Part shown: positions 1-9,667 of the stretch, one piece after another
How positions within the stretch are numbered: position 1 is the first letter of the stretch
How the letters are laid out: each line of letters begins with the position of its first letter
Source of the DNA: an uncultured delta proteobacterium
Lineage (GTDB): Bacteria > Desulfobacterota > Binatia > UBA9968
Assembly (NCBI GenBank): GCA_963745035.1
Contig: CAVUVW010000025.1
Coordinates: 131,646-195,645 of the forward strand
Length of the DNA stretch: 64,000 bases
Direction of reading: 5' to 3'
Made by a program: the position numbers and the translations under genes
The notes under the pieces: generated by a model
Seen by the model: only the letters and a program-made list of their open reading frames with translations
Told to the model about the DNA's origin: nothing
Databases searched by the model: none

Positions 1-155
1 GACAGCACGGTAGACTTGCCGCAGCCCGAATGGCCGATGATGCAGACAAACTCTCCTTCGGTCACCCGCAAGTTGAAATCCTTGACGATCACCGAGCGCC
101 CCTGCTCGGTATCGTAGCTCTTGCCCAACTGAGTGAGTTCGAGAAATGGCATCAT
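1..155 (-). CDS. Nitrate/nitrite ABC transporter ATP-binding subunit (NrtD-like), 5' part; runs off the window
   Basis: Manual translation [14 protein letters not shown]...[17 protein letters not shown] contains Walker A; ATGA overlap with the upstream ATPase stop. Confidence 0.8.
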
Positions 156-1006
156 TGCGAAATTCCTTCCAGCGCTAATTGAGTTGCGCGCTTGCGCCGG
201 GCAGGTCTTTGGTTCGAACCTTTTTGTCCCGCGACGAGAATGCCCACAGTCTCGCGCCGCGCCTTTTGATAATCCGCGCCGCGGCCAACTTCGGCGCGCG
301 AGCGCGGGTGCGGCGTCGCGATGCGCACCGGCGGTCCGAGGGTCGCGCCAGGACTCGAAGTCAGCGTGTAAATCGTATCGGCAAGCAAGATCGCCTCATC
401 GATATCGTTGGTGATCATCACCACCGTCTTTTGGGTTTCCATCCAGATGCGCGCCAGCTCTTCCTGCAACGTACCGCGGGTCAGCGCGTCGAGGGCGCTG
501 AATGGTTCGTCCATCAGCAGCACCTTAGGGTCCATCGCCAGGCCGCGGGCCACCGCCACTCGCTGGCGCATGCCGCCGGAAAGCTCGCGCGGCCGCTTGC
601 CGGAGGCGTTGCTGAGATTCACCAGCTTGATGTAATGCTCCGTGCGCTCACGTTTGTCTTTTTCCGCCAGATGCGGCGCCACCGCATCGACGGCGAGATG
701 GATGTTTTCGTAGACCGTCATCCAGGGCAGCAGTGAATAGTTTTGAAAAACGATGCCGCGCTCCGGGCCCGGACCTTGAATCGCTTTGCCTTCGAGCAAG
801 ATCTCGCCGTGATCCGGTTCCATCAAACCGGCGATCAGCGAGATCAAAGTCGTCTTGCCGGCGCCGGAGCGGCCGACGATACAAACGAACTCCCGTTCTT
901 CGATGGCGAGGTTGATGTCGCGCAGCACGGGCAGCACGTTCGCCGATTGGGCTTTGCCTCTGCCGTGGAATCCCTTGCTCACGCCGCAAATTTCCAGAAA
1001 AGCCAT
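152..1006 (-). CDS. Nitrate/nitrite ABC transporter ATP-binding subunit (NrtC-like)
   Basis: GRSGAGKT Walker A, LSGGMRQR signature, LLMDEPF Walker B; operon context. Confidence 0.9.
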
Positions 1007-1015
1007 GCGCATTCC

Positions 1016-1789
1016 TCAGGCGGTTTTGAACCGGCGCTCGACCACGCCCATTAACCGGTCCAGCGCGAAGCCGATCAGGCCAATGGTGATGATCGACAAG
1101 AGAATGTGCGAATAGACCAGGCTGTTGTATTCCTGCCAGAGAAAACCGCCGACGCCAGGAGCACCGGTGAGCATTTCCGAAGCGACGATGACCAGCCACG
1201 CCAAACCGAGGGACAGACGATAGCCGGTAAACACATAAGGCAGCGATCCCGGAATGATGATGCGCCGCAAGGTTTTCAGCCAGGAGAGTTTGAGCACCCG
1301 CCCAACGTTCAGATATTCCGGGTTGATGCTGCGTACGCCTACGGCCGTGTTGATCACGGTCGGCCACATGGCACAAAGCGCGATCGTGAAGATCGCCGCG
1401 GGCTCCGACTGCCGGAAGATAACCAAGCCCAGCGGCAGCCAGGCCAAGGGCGAGATCGGCCGCAGGATTTGGATCACTGGATCGAACGATTTGTAAAAGA
1501 ACGTCGACAATCCCAGGAGAAAGCCGATGGGCGTGCCAATCGCAATCGCCAGCAAGAAGCCCTTGGCGACGCGCATGAGACTCAGAAACGCGAAACGTCC
1601 GATGCCCTGGTTCATTTCGCCGTCTTTGAAAAACGGGTTGAGGATATACTGCTTGCTCTCTTCCCAGGTTTTCAGCGGCGACGGCAGATCCAGCGCCACG
1701 GTTGTGCTGATCATTGTCCAGAGGAGCAGCGTAAAGCCGATCCCTAGGAAAGGAAGAAACAGAGTAGCGAGATCGAGTCGTTTGGCCAT
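1016..1789 (-). CDS. nrtB: Nitrate ABC transporter permease
   Basis: Multi-TM; LRPISPLAWLP and GLAWLVIVASEM motifs typical of NrtB/CmpB. Confidence 0.88.
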   Translation of the reverse strand: MAKRLDLATLFLPFLGIGFTLLLWTMISTTVALDLPSPLKTWEESKQYILNPFFKDGEMNQGIGRFAFLSLMRVAKGFLLAIAIGTPIGFLLGLSTFFYKSFDPVIQILRPISPLAWLPLGLVIFRQSEPAAIFTIALCAMWPTVINTAVGVRSINPEYLNVGRVLKLSWLKTLRRIIIPGSLPYVFTGYRLSLGLAWLVIVASEMLTGAPGVGGFLWQEYNSLVYSHILLSIITIGLIGFALDRLMGVVERRFKTA

Positions 1790-1800
1790 GTTTTGTCCTT

Positions 1801-3084
1801 TCAGACGAGATTATGGACGGCGAATTTTTTCGCGTACTCTTCCGGCTTGGCCGGGTCGAACTCGATGCCGTCGAAGAGCGTCTCTCTCTTCATGTCTTCC
1901 TTGGGTACCGAGATGCTCATCTCCTTCGCGACCTCGCGAAAGATGTCCGGACGATGAACTTTGTCGACAACCCCCTTGTAATCGGGCGCTCCCTTCACCA
2001 TGCCCCAACGGCGGAACTGCGACAGCCACCAAACGCCGTGAGACTTTAGCGGAAAATTGGTGTTGCGCACGAAGAACGTCATGTAGTTGGGATCCTTTTC
2101 TTTGCGTCCATCGCCGTAGTCATAGTCGCCGAGCATGCGGCCGAGAATGATTTCCTTTTGCGTGTTGATGTACTGCGGCTTCGACACTACCTCGGCCATG
2201 TGCGCGCGGTTTTCCAGCTTATCGATGTGCTGGCTCGATTCGAGCATCGCGCGTAGGATCGCTTTGACCGTCTTGGGATTCTTGTCGGCGAACTCCTCGG
2301 TGAACGCGAGAACCTTTTCCGGATGGTCTTTCCACAACTGCTGTGTGGTGATCGCGGTGAAGCCGATGCCGTCGGCGATCGCCCGGGCGTTCCATGGCTC
2401 GCCGACGCAGAACCCGTCCATCTTGCCCACCTTCATGTTCGCGACCATCTGCGCCGGCGGTATGGTGATGAGCGTCACGTCCTTGTCCGGATTGATGCCG
2501 CCGGAGCCGAGCCAATAGCGCATCCACATGGCGTGAGTTCCGGGAGGGAAAGTCATGGCGAAAGTCATCGGGCTGCCCGCCTTCTTGGCTTGCTCGGCCA
2601 ACGGCTTGATCGCCTGCGGCGTCTTGGCGCCCTTGGCCAGCAACTCTTTGTCCAACGTGATCGCCTGCCCGTTGCGATTGAGATAAAAGGGAATGATCAT
2701 CGGTTTTTGCGGCGAGCCGAGCAGTCCCATAGTCGACGCGTAAGGCATGCCGATGAGCATATGCGTCGCCTGATTTTCTCCCAACGTGAGCCGGTCGCGA
2801 ATGACGGCCCAGGACGCTTCCTTCGAAATGGTCGACTCGATGCCGTATTTCTTGAACAGGCCGAGCTCGTGCGCCATGACGATGGAAGAGCAATCCGTAA
2901 GCGCGATGATGCCGAAGCGAACTTTGGTCGTCTCCGGCGCATCCGCGGCGTACACACCGCCCACCCATCCCTTCGGCATGCCGACGAGGAAGGCGCCCAC
3001 CGCACCCCCGGAGATCTTGAGAAAATTCCGCCGGTTTATTTTTCCAGTTTTGACGAATTGGTTTTTTCTAGCCACGATCCTCAT
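1801..3084 (-). CDS. nrtA: NrtA/CmpA-family nitrate-binding protein, Tat-exported
   Basis: NRRNFLK twin-arginine signal; IALTDC, TFPPGTH, GFCVGEPWN, WKDHPEK motifs. Confidence 0.88.
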   Translation of the reverse strand: MRIVARKNQFVKTGKINRRNFLKISGGAVGAFLVGMPKGWVGGVYAADAPETTKVRFGIIALTDCSSIVMAHELGLFKKYGIESTISKEASWAVIRDRLTLGENQATHMLIGMPYASTMGLLGSPQKPMIIPFYLNRNGQAITLDKELLAKGAKTPQAIKPLAEQAKKAGSPMTFAMTFPPGTHAMWMRYWLGSGGINPDKDVTLITIPPAQMVANMKVGKMDGFCVGEPWNARAIADGIGFTAITTQQLWKDHPEKVLAFTEEFADKNPKTVKAILRAMLESSQHIDKLENRAHMAEVVSKPQYINTQKEIILGRMLGDYDYGDGRKEKDPNYMTFFVRNTNFPLKSHGVWWLSQFRRWGMVKGAPDYKGVVDKVHRPDIFREVAKEMSISVPKEDMKRETLFDGIEFDPAKPEEYAKKFAVHNLV

Positions 3085-4938
3085 CCCTCCACCGTAACTT
3101 GTTCACCCTGCGCCACCAGCCGAAAGACTTTCACCTTCAAGCTCGGATCCGTCGAACAAGCGCCGGTTTTCAAGTCGAATTTATAGCCGTGCAGCGGACA
3201 GACGACCTCGCCGCCCTCGATCCAGCCCTTGCACAATTGGCCCCCTTCGTGCGGGCAAATGTTTTGAATGCCGTAGAGTTTTCCGTCGTTTTTGAAGACC
3301 GCCATCTCTTCTCCTTTCACGCGCACCAGTTTCGCCGCGCCTTCGGCGATCTCATCGCCGCGAAACGATGTCTTTGCCGCTTTGGTATCCGCAGGAGGTG
3401 GCTGCGTACCCAGCGCGGGTGGCTGGGAAATTTTGCGCAACTGTTGTCGCATCGCTTTGAAAGCGCCGTGCTTCGCCAGCCCGGCGATGGCGTCGGGCAA
3501 GTCCTCACACGGCACGTCTTCGAGAATCTTGATTGGAAAGTTGGCTTCGATGCCCGCGGCGCCGGCGGCGAAGACGTCCACCGCTTCGACCACTTCGCCG
3601 TTGATCTTGACGTTCTTTCCGAGGAGACCGATGTCCGAAACGGTGTGGTTGCCGCAGCTCGCCGGGCAGCCCGACCAGTGCATGCGCAGCGGCTGGGTCT
3701 TGCCGAGTTTGGCTTCCAGATGGCGCGCAGTCTTGAGCGCCCATCCCTTGGTGTCGATCAAGGCGAAATGGCAGTAATCCATCCCCGTGCAGCTCACCAG
3801 ACCGCGCATGACCTCCGAGGGATCGTAGCGCAGCTCCTCAAGCACGGGCTCTTCCGTGAGCGCGCCGATCCTGGAATCCGGCACGTTCGGAATAATGATG
3901 TTCTGGCCGACCGTGAGCCGAAGCTGGCCACTGCCGTAGTTTTCTGCCAAGTCTGCGATGCGCAGCATCTGCTCCGAGGTTATGCGTCCGACCGGCACGG
4001 CGAGACCGACGTAGTTGAGTCCCTGCTGCTTCTGGCGCAACACCCCGACGTGATCGGTGTGCTTCTGCGCGCGTTCATCCTTTCCCGCTGCTGTGAGCGG
4101 GCGGTCGACGCGGCGCTCCAATTCGGCGCGAAACTTTTCGATACCCCAGTTCTCGATCAAGAACGCCAAACGCGCCTTGGTGCGCAGCTCGCGGCGCGCC
4201 GTGGTCGCGAAAGATCATGACGATGTGGCTGCACAGCACAGCGGCCTCCTCCGGCGTCACGAAGAGGTTGAGCGGTGAGGCCATGCGAAAGCCGCCCGAG
4301 CCGAGCTTGCCGCCCACCGCGATGTTGAACCCGCACAGCTCGATCCCGCTGATTTCCTTGGTCGCAGGCGTCAAAGCCAGATCCTGCGACTCCGCGTGGG
4401 TGCAAACCTCTTTGCACGCGGTGATCGTGACGTTGAACTTGCGCGGCAGATTGGTGAACGCTTTGTTGCCGACGAAGATTTGCGTGAACTCGCGCACCAC
4501 GCCCGAGGCGTCGAACAGCTCGTTGGGCGTGAGACCGGCGACGGGGCAGCCGATCACGCCGCGGATATTATCCATGCCGGTCTGCAGCGAGATCAGCTCG
4601 ACAGCCGCGAGCCGCTCCCAGATTTCCGGCACGTCGGCAATCGTGAACCAGCGCAGTTGAATCTGCTGGCGGGTGGTGATGTCGGCGAAGCCCTTGCCGT
4701 ATTGGCCGCTGATTTGCCCGATGGCGCGGAGCTGCGTCGCGCTCAGGATGCCGTTGGGAATGCGCAGGCGCATCATGAAATGGCCGGGGGTTTGCCGCCG
4801 GAAAAACACGCCGGCCCACTTGAGGCGCTCCTTGTCGCCTTCGGTGATCGCCTGCCATCCCTCGGCCGCGTACCGCGGCACATCGCCGAGGATTTCCAGC
4901 CCATCCTTTTCTTTTTTGTATTCTTCGATCTTATTCAT
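3081..4938 (-). CDS. nirA: Ferredoxin-nitrite reductase with C-terminal Rieske (NirD-like) domain; frameshift near 4200
   Basis: ORFs 4075..4938 and 3081..4169 join into NirA (TTRQQIQ, NLPRKFN, CTGMDYC and GCPASCG cluster ligands), followed by CPH...CPLH Rieske motif. Confidence 0.88.
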
Positions 4939-5187
4939 GATCTCGCGAGCGCCGGTTCAAACCACAATGCGTTCGACATACGATGGCTATTTCCATAGCG
5001 GCCAGGATTTGCTGCGGAGCCGGCCGGCGCGGTTTGGCCTGGAAACTTCCAGATCGAAGCAGCGCGCCATCTCCAGCACGGGCAGCTTGGGGATGTCCCG
5101 ATCGGCCTGATCGCCGAACACTTCCGCCAGGAAAAGAATGTTCTCGAAAATCTTTCCGCTTGTTCTTTTTGCCCGCGCTTTTGCCAT
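4935..5187 (-). CDS. Small hypothetical protein, first gene of the nir/nrt operon (probably frameshifted)
   Basis: AGGAG RBS before ATG 5187; an alternate frame ends in a TGA overlapping the nirA ATG. Confidence 0.5.
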
Positions 5188-5201
5188 TTACGGCTCCTTG
5201 C

Positions 5202-5273
5202 AAAAATAAAAAGGCGCTCCATCGGATAACCGATGAGCGCCTTTGCTCAGCGAATGCGTCGTCGCGTTCGCTG
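5202..5273 (-). promoter_or_regulatory. ANTAR twin-hairpin element overlapping an intrinsic terminator
   Basis: Minus strand: P1 CAGCGAAcGC-GACGAC-GCaTTCGCTG; P2 GAGC-AAAGGC-GCTC (A1/G4 hexaloop), overlapping terminator AAAGGCGCTCATCGG..CCGATGGAGCGCCTTTTTATTTTT; ANTAR gene adjacent. Confidence 0.85.
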
Positions 5274-5283
5274 TTATGAATGA

Positions 5284-5298
5284 GCAATCGTTATGCCA
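5284..5298 (-). promoter_or_regulatory. Sigma54 -24/-12 promoter of the nir/nrt operon
   Basis: TGGCAT-AACGA-TTGC matches TGGCAC-N5-TTGC. Confidence 0.8.
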
Positions 5299-5379
5299 TG
5301 GACAAATGGAAATAAACCGACGTGATTCTGCCCTTTCGCGCCTGCGGCGTATCTCACTGCCTGCGGCGAAGTCAGGCGC

Positions 5380-5396
5380 TGCTTAGATAAGCGGCA
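5380..5396. promoter_or_regulatory. Putative NtrC-type enhancer site
   Basis: TGC-N11-GCA (tgcttagataagcggca) about 80-100 bp upstream of the sigma54 promoter. Confidence 0.4.
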
Positions 5397-5401
5397 GTCA
5401 C

Positions 5402-5989
5402 TCAATTTTTGTCTCCCTTCATAAATCCACCGGCCAAGATAATTGCCTGGGCGACTTCAACCATCGGTTTGCGCATATTCATGCTGGCTTTCTTGATCAA
5501 GGTGTACGCTTGATCTTCCGACAGATGGCGCTGCTGCATGATCAATCCCTTGGCGCGCTCGATGACTTTTCGCGCTTCCAAGGTTTCTTTCAGACTGGAG
5601 TTTTCCGCGCGCAGCGCGAGGAAATCCTGAAAACGTATGATCGCCAGCTCGACCGCAGGGCTGAGCTGTTCGGCCCTCAGCGGCTTGACGAGATAACCCA
5701 TCACTCCGGCGCGTTTGGCGCGCTCGACCGTCGCCTCGTCACAGTGGCTGGTGATGAGAACGATCGGCACGGGATGCGACCGCATGACGTCGTGAGAAGC
5801 TTCGATGCCGTCAACGTCGGACAGTCCCACGGCCATTAAAATAACGTCGGGAACCGCCCTGCGCGCCAGCGCCAGCGCAGTTTTGCCGCTTGCGCCCTCG
5901 CCCGCGATCTCGTATCCGCCGCTATTTAGGATCGAAAAAAGATGCCGGCGCGAGGGTGGATGATCATCTATGACCACGACCCTTCTCAT
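5402..5989 (-). CDS. ANTAR-domain antiterminator with receiver-like domain (NasT/AmiR-like)
   Basis: Receiver fold plus RKVIERAKGLIM...AYTLIKKASMNMRKPM ANTAR motif; phospho-Asp position reads Ala. Confidence 0.9.
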   Translation of the reverse strand: MRRVVVIDDHPPSRRHLFSILNSGGYEIAGEGASGKTALALARRAVPDVILMAVGLSDVDGIEASHDVMRSHPVPIVLITSHCDEATVERAKRAGVMGYLVKPLRAEQLSPAVELAIIRFQDFLALRAENSSLKETLEARKVIERAKGLIMQQRHLSEDQAYTLIKKASMNMRKPMVEVAQAIILAGGFMKGDKN

Positions 5990-6732
5990 GGGTCCGCTTG
6001 GCCTCCGTCTCCCTTGCGGTTACGCGACCGGCAGTTGCGTCGAACAAATTCTGAGAGGAATCTCTCGCCGTAGTATTTCAAATTGGGCGCATAGCTCTGC
6101 GTGTCGGCGATGATCTTGTCGGGAAGCACGTAGGGAGCCGCGGCTAGATCCTTGGAGCGCTCGTTGATCCACCGCTCAATCATGCGCGGCGTCACTTCGA
6201 GGTGGAACTGCAAGCCGTAGATGCTCTTGCCGACGCGAAAAGCCTGGGTGCTGTAGTGCGCCGAAGAAGCCAGACGAATTGCGCCGGCCGGCAAATCGAA
6301 GCCATCGGCGTGCCATTGGAACACGGTGGCGTTTTCCGGCAGATAGCCGAGCAGCGAGTCCATCTGCCCGTGCGGCGTGATGGATATCGGACTCCAGCCG
6401 ATTTCCCTGACCGCGCCGTGAAAAACTTGTGTTCCAAGAGCCTCAGCCAGGAGATGCGCGCCGAAACAAACGCCGAGGATCGGCACCGCTTCGTCGATCG
6501 CCGCGCGAATGATGCGTTTTTCCCAGCGCAGAAATGGAAAGTCGGCTTCGTCATCCACGCTCATGGAGCCGCCGAGAACGATTACGGCACTGACATTTTC
6601 CAATTCCCCCGCCGGCAACTCGCCGTGGAACAAGCGAAAAATTCGAAAATCCGTTCCTTGCTTTTCCAGTACCTCGGCGAAAAAGCCGAGATCCTCGAGC
6701 GGATCGTGCTGAAAAACCAGGACCTCTGACAT
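5986..6732 (-). CDS. Class I glutamine amidotransferase-like protein
   Basis: VLGGSMS, GVCFGAH (nucleophile Cys), QWHADGF, QFHLE (His-x-Glu). Confidence 0.88.
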   Translation of the reverse strand: MSEVLVFQHDPLEDLGFFAEVLEKQGTDFRIFRLFHGELPAGELENVSAVIVLGGSMSVDDEADFPFLRWEKRIIRAAIDEAVPILGVCFGAHLLAEALGTQVFHGAVREIGWSPISITPHGQMDSLLGYLPENATVFQWHADGFDLPAGAIRLASSAHYSTQAFRVGKSIYGLQFHLEVTPRMIERWINERSKDLAAAPYVLPDKIIADTQSYAPNLKYYGERFLSEFVRRNCRSRNRKGDGGQADP

Positions 6733-6751
6733 GGATCGTGCCGAGTAATAA

Positions 6752-6817
6752 GTGCTGAGGACTGAGGTTGCGTCGCAATTTCTCACCTCAGCCCTTTACC
6801 GCTCAGTCCTCAGTCCT
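6752..6817. repeat. Inverted arrangement of short heptamer repeats (GACTGAG/CTCAGTC)
   Basis: gtgctgaggactgagg ... cctcagccct ... ctcagtcctcagtcct. Confidence 0.55.
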
Positions 6818-6846
6818 ACTTCTCCGCTGCTTGTACCTTGCGCAAT

Positions 6847-6881
6847 GGCGGTGCTGCGGTGGAGGTCACCGCAGCACCGCC
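6847..6881 (-). terminator. Perfect 15-bp hairpin after amtB (terminator-like or mRNA-stabilising)
   Basis: ggcggtgctgcggtg-gaggt-caccgcagcaccgcc; no clear U-tract. Confidence 0.5.
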
Positions 6882-6909
6882 CAGGAGACCACGCGGCTCA
6901 ACCGAAATA

Positions 6910-8503
6910 TTAGACAGTTCCCTTGGAAAGCTCCGCCGCGCCGTAAGGCGCGGTTGATCCCGCCATTTTCCCCGATGGGTCAACCAGAGCGGAACCGCGC
7001 GCGGCCACCGTCACGAAATCAGGATAGGCGACGTTGCCGTGCTCGCCGATATCGAGGCCTTCGATCTCTTCGTCCGCCGGCACGCGGATGCCGACGGTCG
7101 CCGCGATGATTTTCCAGAAAATCAGCGATACGGTGAAGACAAATGCGCCTACACCCACGACGCCGACAAGCTGCTTCATCAGCAGCGCCGCGCCGCCGCC
7201 GAAGAACAAACCGTTGCCGGTGGTGTTGGGCGTGAAATGATCCTGCGCGAACAATCCCACGCACAACGTGCCGAAGATACCGCAGACCAGGTGCACCGAA
7301 GTGGCGCCGACCGGATCGTCGATCTTGATCTTGTCGAAAAACAGCACCGAGACAACAACCAAAAATCCGGCGATCAAGCCGATGATGAGCGAGCTGGGAA
7401 TGCTTACGAAGGCGCAGCCGGCGGTGATCGCGACAAGCCCCGCCAGAGCGCCGTTGAGAATCATGCTGAGATCAGGCTTGCCCAAGAGCAACCATGCGGT
7501 GAGCGAAGCGGAAATGGCTGCCGCCGCTCCGGCGGTGTTGGTCGCCACGGCGATGCGTCCGATAGCGCCGGCATCCGCAGCCATGGTGCTGCCTGGATTG
7601 AAACCAAACCAGCCGAACCAGAGAACGAACACACCGAGAGTCGCCAAAGCCATGCTGTGGCCGGGAAGCGGCAAGGCTTTACCATCTTTGCTGTACTTGC
7701 CGATGCGCGGGCCGAGCACGATAATGCCCGCCAACGCGGCCCAGCCGCCCACCGAATGCACCACCGTCGAACCGGCGAAGTCGAACATGCCGAGCTTGGC
7801 CACCCAACCACCGCCCCAGATCCAGTGGCCGGTGATCGGATAGATGATGCCGACCATCAAAAAGGTGAAAATGTAGAAGGAGCCGAATTTGATGCGCTCG
7901 GCGACGGCGCCGGAGACGATGGTCGCCGCCGTGCCGGCGAAAACCAGCTGGAAGAAAAACTTCGTCCACAGCGGCACGCCCGTCCAGTTAAGCGCGGAGT
8001 ACACTCCCTTGTAGGCATCGCCCATGGCGGGACTATTGTCGGCTCCGCCGACAAACCAAAGCCCCTGAGTTCCCATGAACGCATTGCCGTCGCCGAACAT
8101 CAGTCCCCAGCCGAGCGCCAAAAAAGCCAGAGAAGAAGCCGCGAAGACGATAAAGTTCTTGGCCAAAATTGTGACGGCGTTTTTCGCTCGACAAAGGCCG
8201 GACTCGACCGTCGCGAAGCCTAGGTTCATGAAGAAGACCAACATGCCCGCGATCAAGCGTCCACATGGTGTCCATCGCTACCTTGGCGCCGCCGATCTGC
8301 TCCAATAGTCCTTGTGTGAACTGCGCCGGCGCCGCACCCGGATCTTCTTTCTTCGCTTCAGCCGCCGGCGCTGCGGCGGGCGCTTCCACTTTGGACGGCT
8401 CACTCGGCGGCGGCTCCTGCGCGCGCGCAACGCTCGTGACGAGGAATATTCCCAACAAGGCCGTCAACGACGCGAACGCTAAATATTTCTTTGCCTGCTT
8501 CAT
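6910..8503 (-). CDS. amtB: Ammonium transporter with signal peptide; frameshift near 8257
   Basis: FFQLVFA, SGAVAER, DFAGSTVVH, LWFGWFGFN, DDPVGA..VH; N-terminus in ORF 8033..8503. Confidence 0.93.
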
Positions 8504-8538
8504 TGTTTTCTCCCTCCTCGGAGTTTTGAGCTGATTTC

Positions 8539-8991
<453 letters not shown>

Positions 8992-9061
8992 CTAGTCGGT
9001 GAATTCTTTACAGATTCTTTACGATGGTGACGAGGCGGGCTTTGCGGAACTTCATAGAGGC

Positions 9062-9098
9062 TGCTCAGAAATTAAGCCTGCCGCCTAAATTTCATGCA
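9062..9098. promoter_or_regulatory. Tandem NtrC-like enhancer sites
   Basis: tgctcagaaattaagcc and cgcctaaatttcatgca: 17-mers with AT-rich cores, 100-135 bp upstream of -24. Confidence 0.45.
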
Positions 9099-9188
9099 GC
9101 ACGAAATGGATCAGGACGGTGTTGTGCGATCTAAACGTTAAGGTAGCAGTAAGGCGCTACTGTGTCACGACTGGGTGAGAAGCTTTTT

Positions 9189-9225
9189 GCGGGGCACGGC
9201 GCCCGGCGGGACGCCGTGCCCCTAT
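9189..9225. repeat. REP-like palindrome (GTAG-family-like)
   Basis: ggggcacggcg-N10-cgccgtgcccc-ta. Confidence 0.55.
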
Positions 9226-9274
9226 CCCGACGTCCTGCACAGGAGGCACACACTGAACAGGGAATCCGAATCGA

Positions 9275-9460
9275 TTAGAGCTCGTCTTTATGGTTTCGCG
9301 CGAGTGCCTCGATTTGATCGGCAACTTCACGAAGCTCGCGCGCCAAACCTTGGAACCCGTCGCTGATCACTTCCGTCGATGCCGTCGTATAGTGCACATG
9401 TACTAACGATTCGGGTCCAAGACTGACTTCCCACTTTTTTCCTGAATGGCTGTCATCCAT
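9275..9460 (-). CDS. Small hypothetical protein
   Basis: 61 aa, GAAGGA RBS, helical-looking C-terminus. Confidence 0.5.
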   Translation of the reverse strand: MDDSHSGKKWEVSLGPESLVHVHYTTASTEVISDGFQGLARELREVADQIEALARNHKDEL

Positions 9461-9667
9461 TGTTTCGTTCCTTCACTGGCGCATTTTCGAATCAAATCGG
9501 CCCTCTCCACATGTTTGGCGGCGGACTCGGTCACCGATTTAAAACCGATAGCAATGTCTCTCGATCAGTGGTGATCGACAAAAGTAGCTGGCTGTCTGAA
9601 GACCTGAAAAGGCGGAGATGGCTGGCTGTAAAATTTTTCTTCCAACGCTTCGACTGACGCGCGAATG

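Follow-up and report, generated by a model that had tools for sequence, protein, structure and literature searches.

ANTAR-type antiterminators are widespread, but to our knowledge their controlling signals have been established in just a few cases, namely those involving AmiC, NasS, a NIT domain or kinases. The 64-kb window analysed here, i.e. the whole stretch of DNA under study, belongs to a metagenome-assembled genome (MAG) of the Binatia (7.4 Mb, 92.6% complete, 5.8% contamination), and it raises the question of how such a protein is controlled when its receiver (REC) domain lacks the aspartate that accepts the phosphoryl group. On the minus strand of this window, the gene of a REC-ANTAR regulator directly follows that of a class I glutamine amidotransferase (GATase)-fold protein. 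An earlier note on this DNA, made from the sequence alone, had proposed that the GATase senses or hydrolyses glutamine or an amide and thereby gates a non-phosphorylatable antiterminator. We confirm the observation and support its interpretation in part: the regulator is a GnfR-like ANTAR protein that lacks the receiver aspartate, the GATase is its conserved companion, and together they are a variant of a known design.

The receiver domain of the regulator

The regulator matches the Pfam families Response_reg (77 bits, residues 4-113) and ANTAR (75.5 bits, residues 133-184). Its best full-length structure matches are the PDB entries 1s8n (Rv1626/PdtaR; E 1.6e-38) and 6wsh (E 4e-37), which we take to be PdtaR of Mycobacterium and EutV of Enterococcus, respectively. 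In the alignment with 1s8n, Ala53 of the regulator (codon GCC at 5831-5833) is found at the phospho-acceptor position, the segment PDVILMAVGLS facing PDLVIMDVKMP of PdtaR, and the PdtaR residue aligned with Ala53 is presumably its phospho-acceptor Asp. The alignment with 6wsh likewise puts Ala53 at that position, in agreement with the earlier note. The remaining pocket residues D8, D9, T80 and K102 are kept, and this set (DD, T and K) is shared with PdtaR and EutV; in contrast with the regulator, those two proteins have the acceptor Asp and cognate kinases. Devoid of an acceptor Asp at the end of beta-strand 3, the protein is not a canonical response regulator, and its receiver fold without that residue places it among the aspartate-less receivers (ALRs). 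ALR domains are a described class enriched among ANTAR proteins, and Ala occurs in 9% of them (PMC4395418).

We searched 123 genomes of the order, including this one, and found regulator orthologs in 43 others, distributed over three families. The acceptor site is occupied by Ala in 37 of these genomes, by Ser in four (all of one genus) and by Asp in none; one ortholog (38% identity) could not be aligned at this site and one was left unexamined. The orthologs have a mean column identity of 70%, with D8, D9 and K102 invariant and T80 conserved in at least 90%. Contigs from four metagenome or metatranscriptome runs were also compared with the window, the parts that they do not cover carrying no meaning. 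In an independent DNA run, a contig of 1286 bases spans positions 5772-7057 with one difference, at 6606, and has the same Ala codon, which is also unchanged in two contigs from metatranscriptome (RNA) libraries. The read error that the earlier note had considered is thus ruled out, and Ala53 is genuine.

The regulator is the single ANTAR match in the whole genome, as far as its 92.6% completeness allows. A Methylocystis NasS query against the whole genome retrieved only the NrtA protein encoded in the window (35% identity; next E 2e-7), in keeping with the absence of a NasS from the window noted earlier. The N-terminus of NrtA (...KINRRNFLK...) harbours the twin-arginine (Tat) motif RRNFLK, in line with the Tat signal already pointed out; its Pfam TAT_signal score is 20.3 bits, under the cut-off of 22.7. 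Among the 151 NMT1_2 matches in the genome, NrtA alone scores high (319.5 bits, vs 85 for the next). No NIT-domain protein was matched in the genome, a weak negative since the same search was silent in every control genome. As a separate observation, the 151 NMT1_2 matches represent a very large expansion of substrate-binding proteins of ABC transporters, the only one of nitrate type being the window NrtA.

The GATase companion and its distribution

The GATase starts with the ATG at 6732, as in its orthologs, and its stop codon overlaps the ATG of the regulator gene in the sequence ATGA at 5986-5989, as read previously. The catalytic residues Cys89 (codon 6466-6468), His177 and Glu179 are present, as described in the earlier note and as expected of a class I GATase (PF00117). 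The protein scores 207.3 bits against NCBIfam PRK07053, below the curated equivalog cut-off of 250. Its closest solved structures, TM1158 (1o1y; profile E 3.5e-46), 9xfs, 3l7n and 3m3p, are those of uncharacterised proteins. It shares its fold, length, Cys-His-Glu triad and C-terminal helical extension with TM1158/PRK07053-type GATases and with the gamma-glutamyl peptidase GGP1 of Arabidopsis (9k7i). However, the TM1158-type proteins are named only 'glutamine amidotransferase' or 'hypothetical protein' and no link of any of them to an RNA-binding regulator has been described, whereas the window GATase falls within a subclade associated with glnK, amtB, glnA and ANTAR loci. It stands alone, with neither a synthase domain nor an adjoining synthase gene. 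It is most likely an active hydrolase of glutamine or of a gamma-glutamyl amide.

The alignment of 31 GATase orthologs (mean column identity 80%) showed that His177 and Glu179 are invariant and that Cys89 is present in 28 sequences and replaced with Gly in three. In these three proteins (LGIGLGAQ; L109 in G061, L082 in G062 and L081 in G107), His177, Glu179 and the remaining sequence are conserved, and the genes of G061 and G062 are ATGA-coupled to the regulator all the same.

Orthologs of the GATase (57-83% identity) are encoded in 34 of the 123 genomes, all of one family, and a paralog (roughly 35-42% identity) is present in almost every genome of the order, including this one. Both the GATase and the regulator genes are found in 26 genomes; they are adjacent in 24, on separate contigs in G008 and 1.7 kb apart in G114. 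The ATGA overlap, in which the last sense base of the GATase gene is the A of the regulator ATG, is found in 22 of the 24 adjacent pairs. In G084 (L087/L067), the two genes form one open reading frame (ORF) of 442 aa, owing to one additional base 3-6 nt before the regulator ATG; either the genes are naturally fused, or the base is an indel error of a MAG that consists of few contigs.

Eight genomes have a GATase ortholog and no regulator, and 18 genomes have an Ala/Ser regulator without a GATase ortholog. Because of these two groups, the loss of Asp is common to the whole regulator orthogroup and the GATase to only part of it. Judging by this pattern, the loss of Asp is independent of the GATase. 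The causal link that the earlier note had drawn between the two does not hold, all the more since the pairs found in a second phylum (see below) keep the Asp. We examined 14 regulator-only loci: the regulator gene directly follows glnA (L110, L111 and L113), amtB (L100 and L102) or glnK (L105), and in the others it precedes nrtABC or glnK-amtB. No nirA was detected at E<=1e-30 in the eight GATase-only genomes or in G008, whose regulator is broken, compared with matches in four of five regulator-positive controls; the regulator thus appears to track its target nirA. The GATase-only genomes are scattered within the regulator-linked clade of the GATase tree, a pattern suggesting that the regulator was lost secondarily more than once. 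Four genomes are flagged as unpublished, namely G005 (GATase-only and nirA-less), G093 (regulator-only, L111), and G076 and G079 (paralog rows only), and leaving them out alters no conclusion.

Outside Binatia, seven of 63 loci with distant GATase homologs have a REC-ANTAR gene directly upstream of the GATase gene. A class labelled Thermodesulfobacteriota comprises 96 genomes of about 2 Mb, 86 of them with the GATase, and we examined its best 30 loci. In 28 of them, the regulator gene is directly upstream of the GATase gene on the same strand, and the Asp is always kept; of the other two, one has no regulator and one is ended by a contig edge. The gene order is thus reversed relative to that in Binatia, and a 4-nt overlap is present in at least L148 and L151. 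Between the two groups, identity is 46% for the full-length regulators and 39% for the GATases. The catalytic triad is intact in all seven proteins sampled among 35 ANTAR-linked partners of the second phylum. Conservation of the pair therefore extends further than the earlier note could know.

A quick tree search with 81 GATase sequences yielded one group with an SH-aLRT support of 91, apart from the generic paralogs, that holds four clades of unresolved relative branching: Binatia (support 100), Thermodesulfobacteriota ANTAR-linked proteins (97), Nitrospirota and an amtB-glnK-linked clade. Related GATases adjoin amtB-glnK at loci devoid of any ANTAR gene. To judge from these loci, the GATase subfamily recurs in nitrogen-limitation contexts and keeps its association with nitrogen genes in the absence of ANTAR proteins. 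The pairing data further indicate that the GATase is tied to the regulator more than expected and that it sits where a regulator would normally have its sensor. A search for GATase-REC-ANTAR fusions in longer proteins returned three matches, all of them hybrid histidine kinases, and no fusion; this is weak evidence. A prediction of the complex between the regulator and the GATase, from input alignments of 37 and 31 rows, gave a score of 0.00 relative to a mark of 0.32, which speaks neither for nor against binding. We found no paper describing a GATase-ANTAR pair, judging by titles and abstract openings.

The leader RNA and the surrounding locus

We compared the spacers between the regulator gene and orf66, a small gene downstream of it, from 20 orthologous loci. 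A sigma-54 motif, two hairpins (P1 and P2) and an intrinsic terminator are common to all 20 leaders (Table 1). The P1 loop is GACGAC in the window and AACGAC in most relatives; its position 4 is always G, and its position 1 is A or G. Over the 20 leaders, 84% of the P1 cells are paired, and four of its nine pairs show compensatory changes on both sides. The four pairs of the P2 stem are invariant and 100% paired in all leaders, and therefore they hold no covariation information. For P1 and P2 jointly, 89% of the cells are paired, compared with 34-46% when the 3' partners are slid by 1-3 columns. The loop and the 3' arm of P2 form part of the 5' arm of the terminator, for which 96% of the cells are paired, with two covarying pairs (slid controls, 29-65%), and which also appears as a strong hairpin in a single-sequence fold. 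A generic terminator scan missed it because its stem is interrupted by a bulge, and it was found by folding and comparison. A scan of positions 4800-9600 with Rfam at E<=5 gave chance-level matches only, i.e. the leader falls in no curated family.

The ANTAR target was reportedly defined by Ramesh et al. in 2012 as two hexaloop hairpins whose loops have A as the first and G as the fourth base, the second hairpin competing with a terminator. All 20 leaders have these elements; the deviation concerns the first base of the P1 loop, which is A or G across the leaders and G in the window. On the strength of its predicted and covarying structure, the leader is a dual-hexaloop ANTAR substrate.

Exact matches to TGGCAYN5TTGC occur twice in the 64-kb window, compared with 0.41 expected by chance, and both are on the strand of the genes. 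The first is presumed to be the promoter of glnK-amtB-GATase-regulator, and the second precedes the leader, where the spacing between the sigma-54 motif and the ANTAR site is the same in each of the 20 orthologous leaders. Further upstream, two inverted repeats are candidate binding sites for a sigma-54 activator; similar elements were spotted by eye in the orthologous leaders. The earlier placement of the pair between glnK-amtB and an ANTAR-controlled operon is borne out by profile matches and by the ANTAR-type leader.

In the Thermodesulfobacteriota-labelled class, 27 of the 28 paired loci have a sigma-54 motif ahead of the regulator gene. There is no ANTAR site between the regulator and GATase genes in any of the 28, and there is one past the GATase gene in 24, mostly just after a second sigma-54 motif. 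These downstream leaders consist of a sigma-54 motif, a hexaloop hairpin, and then AGGCAAAGGCGCC and a terminator. The two that were fully read precede the genes of a signal-peptide protein, glnK and amtB. We also noticed that in L148 (1873-2688), L151 (3470-4291) and their relatives, this first gene after the ANTAR leader codes for a protein of ~270 residues, which may form a channel in the outer membrane for ammonium or some other source of nitrogen. In a distinct case, L101 of G063, a sigma-54 motif, a GAGCAAAGGCGC site and a terminator (at about 7034, minus strand) precede the regulator gene itself, which suggests that the regulator is autoregulated by antitermination in that lineage.

All the genes in positions 1-9000 of the window are on the minus strand, in the transcription order glnK, amtB, GATase, REC-ANTAR regulator, a non-coding stretch of 214 nt, orf66, nirA, nrtA, nrtB and nrtC.

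Table 1. Positions of the genes, promoter motifs and RNA elements of the locus in the 64-kb window
Feature	Position	Strand	Basis or remark
sigma-54 type -24/-12 promoter TGGCACCGCCGTTGC, upstream of glnK	8948-8962	minus	Motif match
glnK (PII protein)	8539-8877	minus	Pfam P-II 116.9 bits; GAGGAG ribosome-binding site, ATG at 8877
amtB (ammonium transporter)	6910-8256	minus	Pfam Ammonium_transp 397 bits
Class I GATase-fold protein, standalone, 248 aa	5986-6732	minus	Pfam GATase 61.8 bits
REC-ANTAR antiterminator, 195 aa, aspartate-less receiver	5402-5989	minus	Pfam Response_reg and ANTAR
Two inverted repeats, CTGCC-N9-GGCAG and GCCTG-N9-CAGGC	5359-5397	minus	About 65-110 nt upstream of the -24 element
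sigma-54 type -24/-12 promoter TGGCATAACGATTGC of the regulated operon	5284-5298	minus	Exact motif match
Hairpin P1, 9-bp stem, hexaloop	5249-5272	minus	About 25 nt past the sigma-54 element
Hairpin P2, GAGC-AAAGGC-GCUC, hexaloop with A at 1 and G at 4	5235-5248	minus	Immediately follows P1
Intrinsic terminator, 15-bp stem and U tract, competes with P2	5200-5244	minus	Fold and comparison
orf66, 66 aa, family unassigned by Pfam	4987-5187	minus	First gene past the terminator; AAGGAG ribosome-binding site
nirA (ferredoxin-nitrite reductase with C-terminal Rieske/NirD-like domain)	3081-4938	minus	Profile matches
nrtABC nitrate/nitrite ABC transporter	152-3084	minus	Pfam NMT1_2 317.7 bits (nrtA), BPD_transp_1, ABC_tran
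nrtA	1801-3084	minus	
nrtB	1016-1789	minus	
nrtC	152-1012	minus	

The order typical of the genus is glnK-amtB-glnA-GATase-regulator-orf66, and the window lacks glnA at that position. The amtB-GATase spacer (6733-6909, minus strand), where glnA is located in most relatives, contains a long hairpin with perfect pairing, GGCGGTGCTGCGGTG...CACCGCAGCACCGCC, along with repeats of GACTGAGG/CCTCAGTC. They may be the scar of a rearrangement, or a processing or attenuation site.

The orf66 product is 46-77% identical in relatives. Its gene, always the first one behind the ANTAR-controlled terminator, is downstream of the regulator gene in 19 of 20 other ortholog loci that hold the regulator. This holds even for loci with nirA at a distance of kilobases and for G015, in which no nirA was found. 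In G013, in which the regulator has been deleted, orf66 is beside the GATase gene (L059), and it is missing from some loci, e.g. L082. The protein has no match in Pfam; a protein atlas returned SAM-like N-terminal domains of integrases (0.89-0.92, with few shared features), which is a weak lead.

In the window, one extra base near 4196 (in GCGCCGCG, within 4190-4205), after ...FRDHGA, divides nirA between two ORFs that overlap (4075-4938 and 3081-4169). We rejected the idea that this split is genus-wide, as G014 (617 aa) and G083 hold one open frame of about 618 codons for a NirA-Rieske fusion. The frameshift is probably an assembly indel or specific to the strain, because a 97%-identical contig from an independent DNA run has one base fewer at 4196 and no frameshift. 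Contigs of other runs also show single-base deletions relative to the window at 5423, 8257/8258 and 8511. This suggests that the window assembly holds scattered one-base errors, which may affect the last codons of the regulator and the start of amtB; the exact start of the latter is uncertain because of the indels of relatives at 8257/8258.

Contigs from metatranscriptome libraries of two studies map to the regulator, GATase, amtB and orf66 genes. This is a weak hint that they are expressed, because such libraries can contain DNA. Near-identical sequences were found in soil and rhizosphere metagenome runs.

Relation to known systems and control of the regulator

In Geobacter sulfurreducens, a tier composed of sigma-54 and GnfL-GnfM induces GnfK/GnfR, which antiterminates nitrogen genes, and the GnfK kinase was thought to be constitutive; no sensor domain was found in it (PMC2995071). 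Our system resembles it in several respects: the REC-ANTAR architecture; the location of both the regulator gene and its targets behind sigma-54 promoters, here motif matches; the induction of the regulator by nitrogen limitation, which is presumed here; and a terminator overlapped by a conserved site, CAGGCAANGGCGCC for GnfR and GAGCAAAGGCGCUC in the window (PMC2995071). P2 resembles the GnfR site CAGGCAANGGCGCC, and the Thermodesulfobacteriota-labelled AGGCAAAGGCGCC matches it. Thus, at the level of motifs, the locus has the sigma-54 elements and the terminator overlapped by a GGCAANGGCGCC-like site that characterize a GnfR cascade. In addition, the nearest Asp-bearing relatives of the regulator (46% identity, in a comparison that did not include GnfR itself) are GnfR-like proteins of the Thermodesulfobacteriota-labelled MAGs. 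There are three differences. The acceptor Asp is replaced with Ala or Ser, and therefore phosphotransfer of the GnfK type is impossible here. The target is nitrite and nitrate assimilation rather than the nif genes of Geobacter. Finally, the regulator is coupled to a GATase, and the word 'amidotransferase' does not occur in the available text of PMC2995071.

NasS-NasT is the nitrate- and nitrite-responsive antitermination complex of Paracoccus and Azotobacter (PMC3795266). The two systems have in common a REC-ANTAR protein, a nitrate/nitrite assimilation operon, a leader terminator and control independent of phosphorylation. The 4-nt overlap of the regulator gene with its neighbour is also shared, as in the nasT-nasS loci L040-L042. 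However, there is no NasS partner in this genome, and the neighbour is an upstream GATase gene instead of a downstream gene for an NrtA-like binding protein. With three NasT proteins of nasT-nasS loci, the regulator shares only 30-33% identity, and it shows the opposite pattern of receiver residues, since NasT keeps the Asp and is devoid of the conserved Lys and Thr. The regulator is not NasT-like, and the system resembles Geobacter GnfR more closely than NasT.

AmiC-AmiR of Pseudomonas aeruginosa is an amide-responsive antitermination system in which AmiR is sequestered by the ligand-binding protein AmiC. With its aspartate-less pseudo-receiver, its ANTAR domain and its gating by a partner, AmiR is the model for the idea that a partner controls the regulator. 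Nevertheless, AmiC is an amide sensor with a periplasmic-binding-protein fold and not a GATase, and no AmiC-like gene is located beside the regulator gene. Moreover, the pocket of AmiR is degenerate, in contrast with that of the regulator, in which all the residues but Asp are kept.

The explanation that we favour, and that we hold with as much doubt as belief, is that the regulator is a kinase-independent antiterminator of the GnfR type controlled by its abundance under nitrogen limitation, and that the GATase is a co-expressed enzyme of the nitrogen regulon. With a receiver beyond phosphorylation, the regulator would be active whenever present, and therefore it would be controlled by the amount made. 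Its gene would be the last one of a sigma-54-driven operon, glnK-amtB-GATase-regulator, with glnA after amtB in most relatives. Because of this position in a nitrogen-limitation operon, the regulator would accumulate only when fixed nitrogen is scarce. It would then bind the two hexaloop hairpins in the leader of the second sigma-54 transcript, and binding would block the overlapping terminator and allow read-through into orf66-nirA-nrtABC, for nitrite reduction and nitrate/nitrite uptake. The outcome would be a two-tier cascade like that from GnfL/M to GnfK/R in Geobacter, minus the kinase step. The GATase would be made along with the regulator, to which it is coupled in translation, and the Asp would have been lost independently of it.

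Several points weigh against this explanation. The aspartate-less ANTAR regulators of known mechanism, such as AmiR, are gated by a ligand-binding protein. A pocket without a function would hardly account for the strict conservation of D8, D9, T80 and K102. A coupled pairing in two phyla, in the operon of the regulator and not among its targets, exceeds simple co-regulation. The Gly in place of the catalytic Cys in three GATases, two of them still coupled to the regulator, argues that their role is not purely enzymatic. An abundance-only cascade lacks the specificity for nitrate or nitrite that is a feature of known nas systems. Finally, the sigma-54 promoters are motif matches only.

A more tentative alternative is that the GATase is a co-regulator that senses glutamine or another amide and sequesters or releases the regulator, in the manner of AmiC/AmiR and NasS/NasT. 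It is possible, if doubtful, that such a protein provides fast feedback from the nitrogen status to read-through, and that in Binatia this control, acting together with abundance, took the place of phosphorylation. The adjacency of the two genes in 24 of 26 genomes, their overlap in 22 of the 24, and the occurrence of the pair in reversed order in 28 of 30 loci of a second phylum are consistent with this role. So is the position of the GATase in a sensor slot, behind the sigma-54 motif of the regulator gene (27/28), with no intergenic ANTAR site and with the ANTAR site past the GATase gene (24/28). The Cys-to-Gly replacement in three of 31 orthologs, still coupled to the regulator in G061 and G062, would be compatible with a non-catalytic function, and the genome has neither NasS nor another ANTAR protein. 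The missing sensor domain of GnfK also leaves room for another input (PMC2995071).

However, 18 genomes have an Ala/Ser regulator without a GATase ortholog and only a roughly 40%-identical paralog elsewhere, and eight genomes have kept the GATase after the loss of both the regulator and nirA. Related GATases are also encoded beside amtB-glnK without an ANTAR gene. The triad, intact in 28 of 31 orthologs of Binatia and in 7/7 partners of the second phylum, fits an enzyme equally well. The apparent fusion in G084 would support the role of a co-regulator, but it rests on one extra base in a MAG of few contigs, and the window assembly itself has single-base indels; the search among longer proteins, weak as it is, found only hybrid kinases. 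Nothing points to nitrate or nitrite as ligands of the GATase, which had also been considered at the outset. An extension of the co-regulator idea, no less speculative, is that the standalone GATase-fold protein is a dedicated sensor of nitrogen status, through glutamine or another amide, for GnfR-type antiterminators. The pair would then be an ancient two-gene sigma-54 module of Binatia and the Thermodesulfobacteriota-labelled class; in Binatia, control of one protein by the other would have rendered phosphorylation dispensable, with loss of the receiver Asp as a consequence.

It is improbable, in our view, that the regulator is gated by another factor, be it GlnK, feedback by the orf66 product, or a small anion or metabolite bound directly by the acidic pocket that the receiver has kept. 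GlnK (PII) senses 2-oxoglutarate and ATP/ADP, and glnK or glnK-amtB is near the regulator gene in most loci of the three families, directly upstream in L105 and directly downstream in L112. This proximity is equally explained by shared transcriptional control, however. The gene orf66 follows the regulator and the leader in 19 of 20 loci, even with nirA distant or not found, but its product has no recognisable family and the gene is missing from some loci. The pocket residues are kept without the acceptor Asp, and the coordination of small molecules in altered pockets has been raised as a possibility, although these residues may simply stabilise the fold, as also proposed (PMC4395418).

Finally, an assembly artefact or a decaying, non-functional locus, which the nirA frameshift, the single-base indels at 4196, 5423, 8257/8258 and 8511 and the contamination of the MAG could suggest, is very improbable and already largely refuted by the presence of Ala or Ser in 41 of 42 other genomes examined, the independent DNA and RNA-library contigs sharing the codon, the intact and conserved ORFs of both proteins, the covariation in the leader and the absence of the frameshift from the 97%-identical contig.

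Should the GATase prove to be no more than an enzyme co-expressed with the regulator, what remains is a well-described variation on a regulatory design already known. If it is a sensor, it would add a new class of ligand-binding partners of ANTAR proteins to AmiC and NasS and would show the amidotransferase fold in a new regulatory role. It might then also fill the sensor gap noted for GnfK/GnfR by the authors of the Geobacter study (PMC2995071). The GATase companion thus offers a specific hypothesis for how the glutamine status could reach an RNA-binding regulator. Our analysis defines a clade of apparently kinase-independent, GnfR-like regulators in Binatia, an uncultured phylum, together with their RNA target and sigma-54 wiring, and it provides a concrete model for how nitrite and nitrate assimilation would be switched on in these bacteria.

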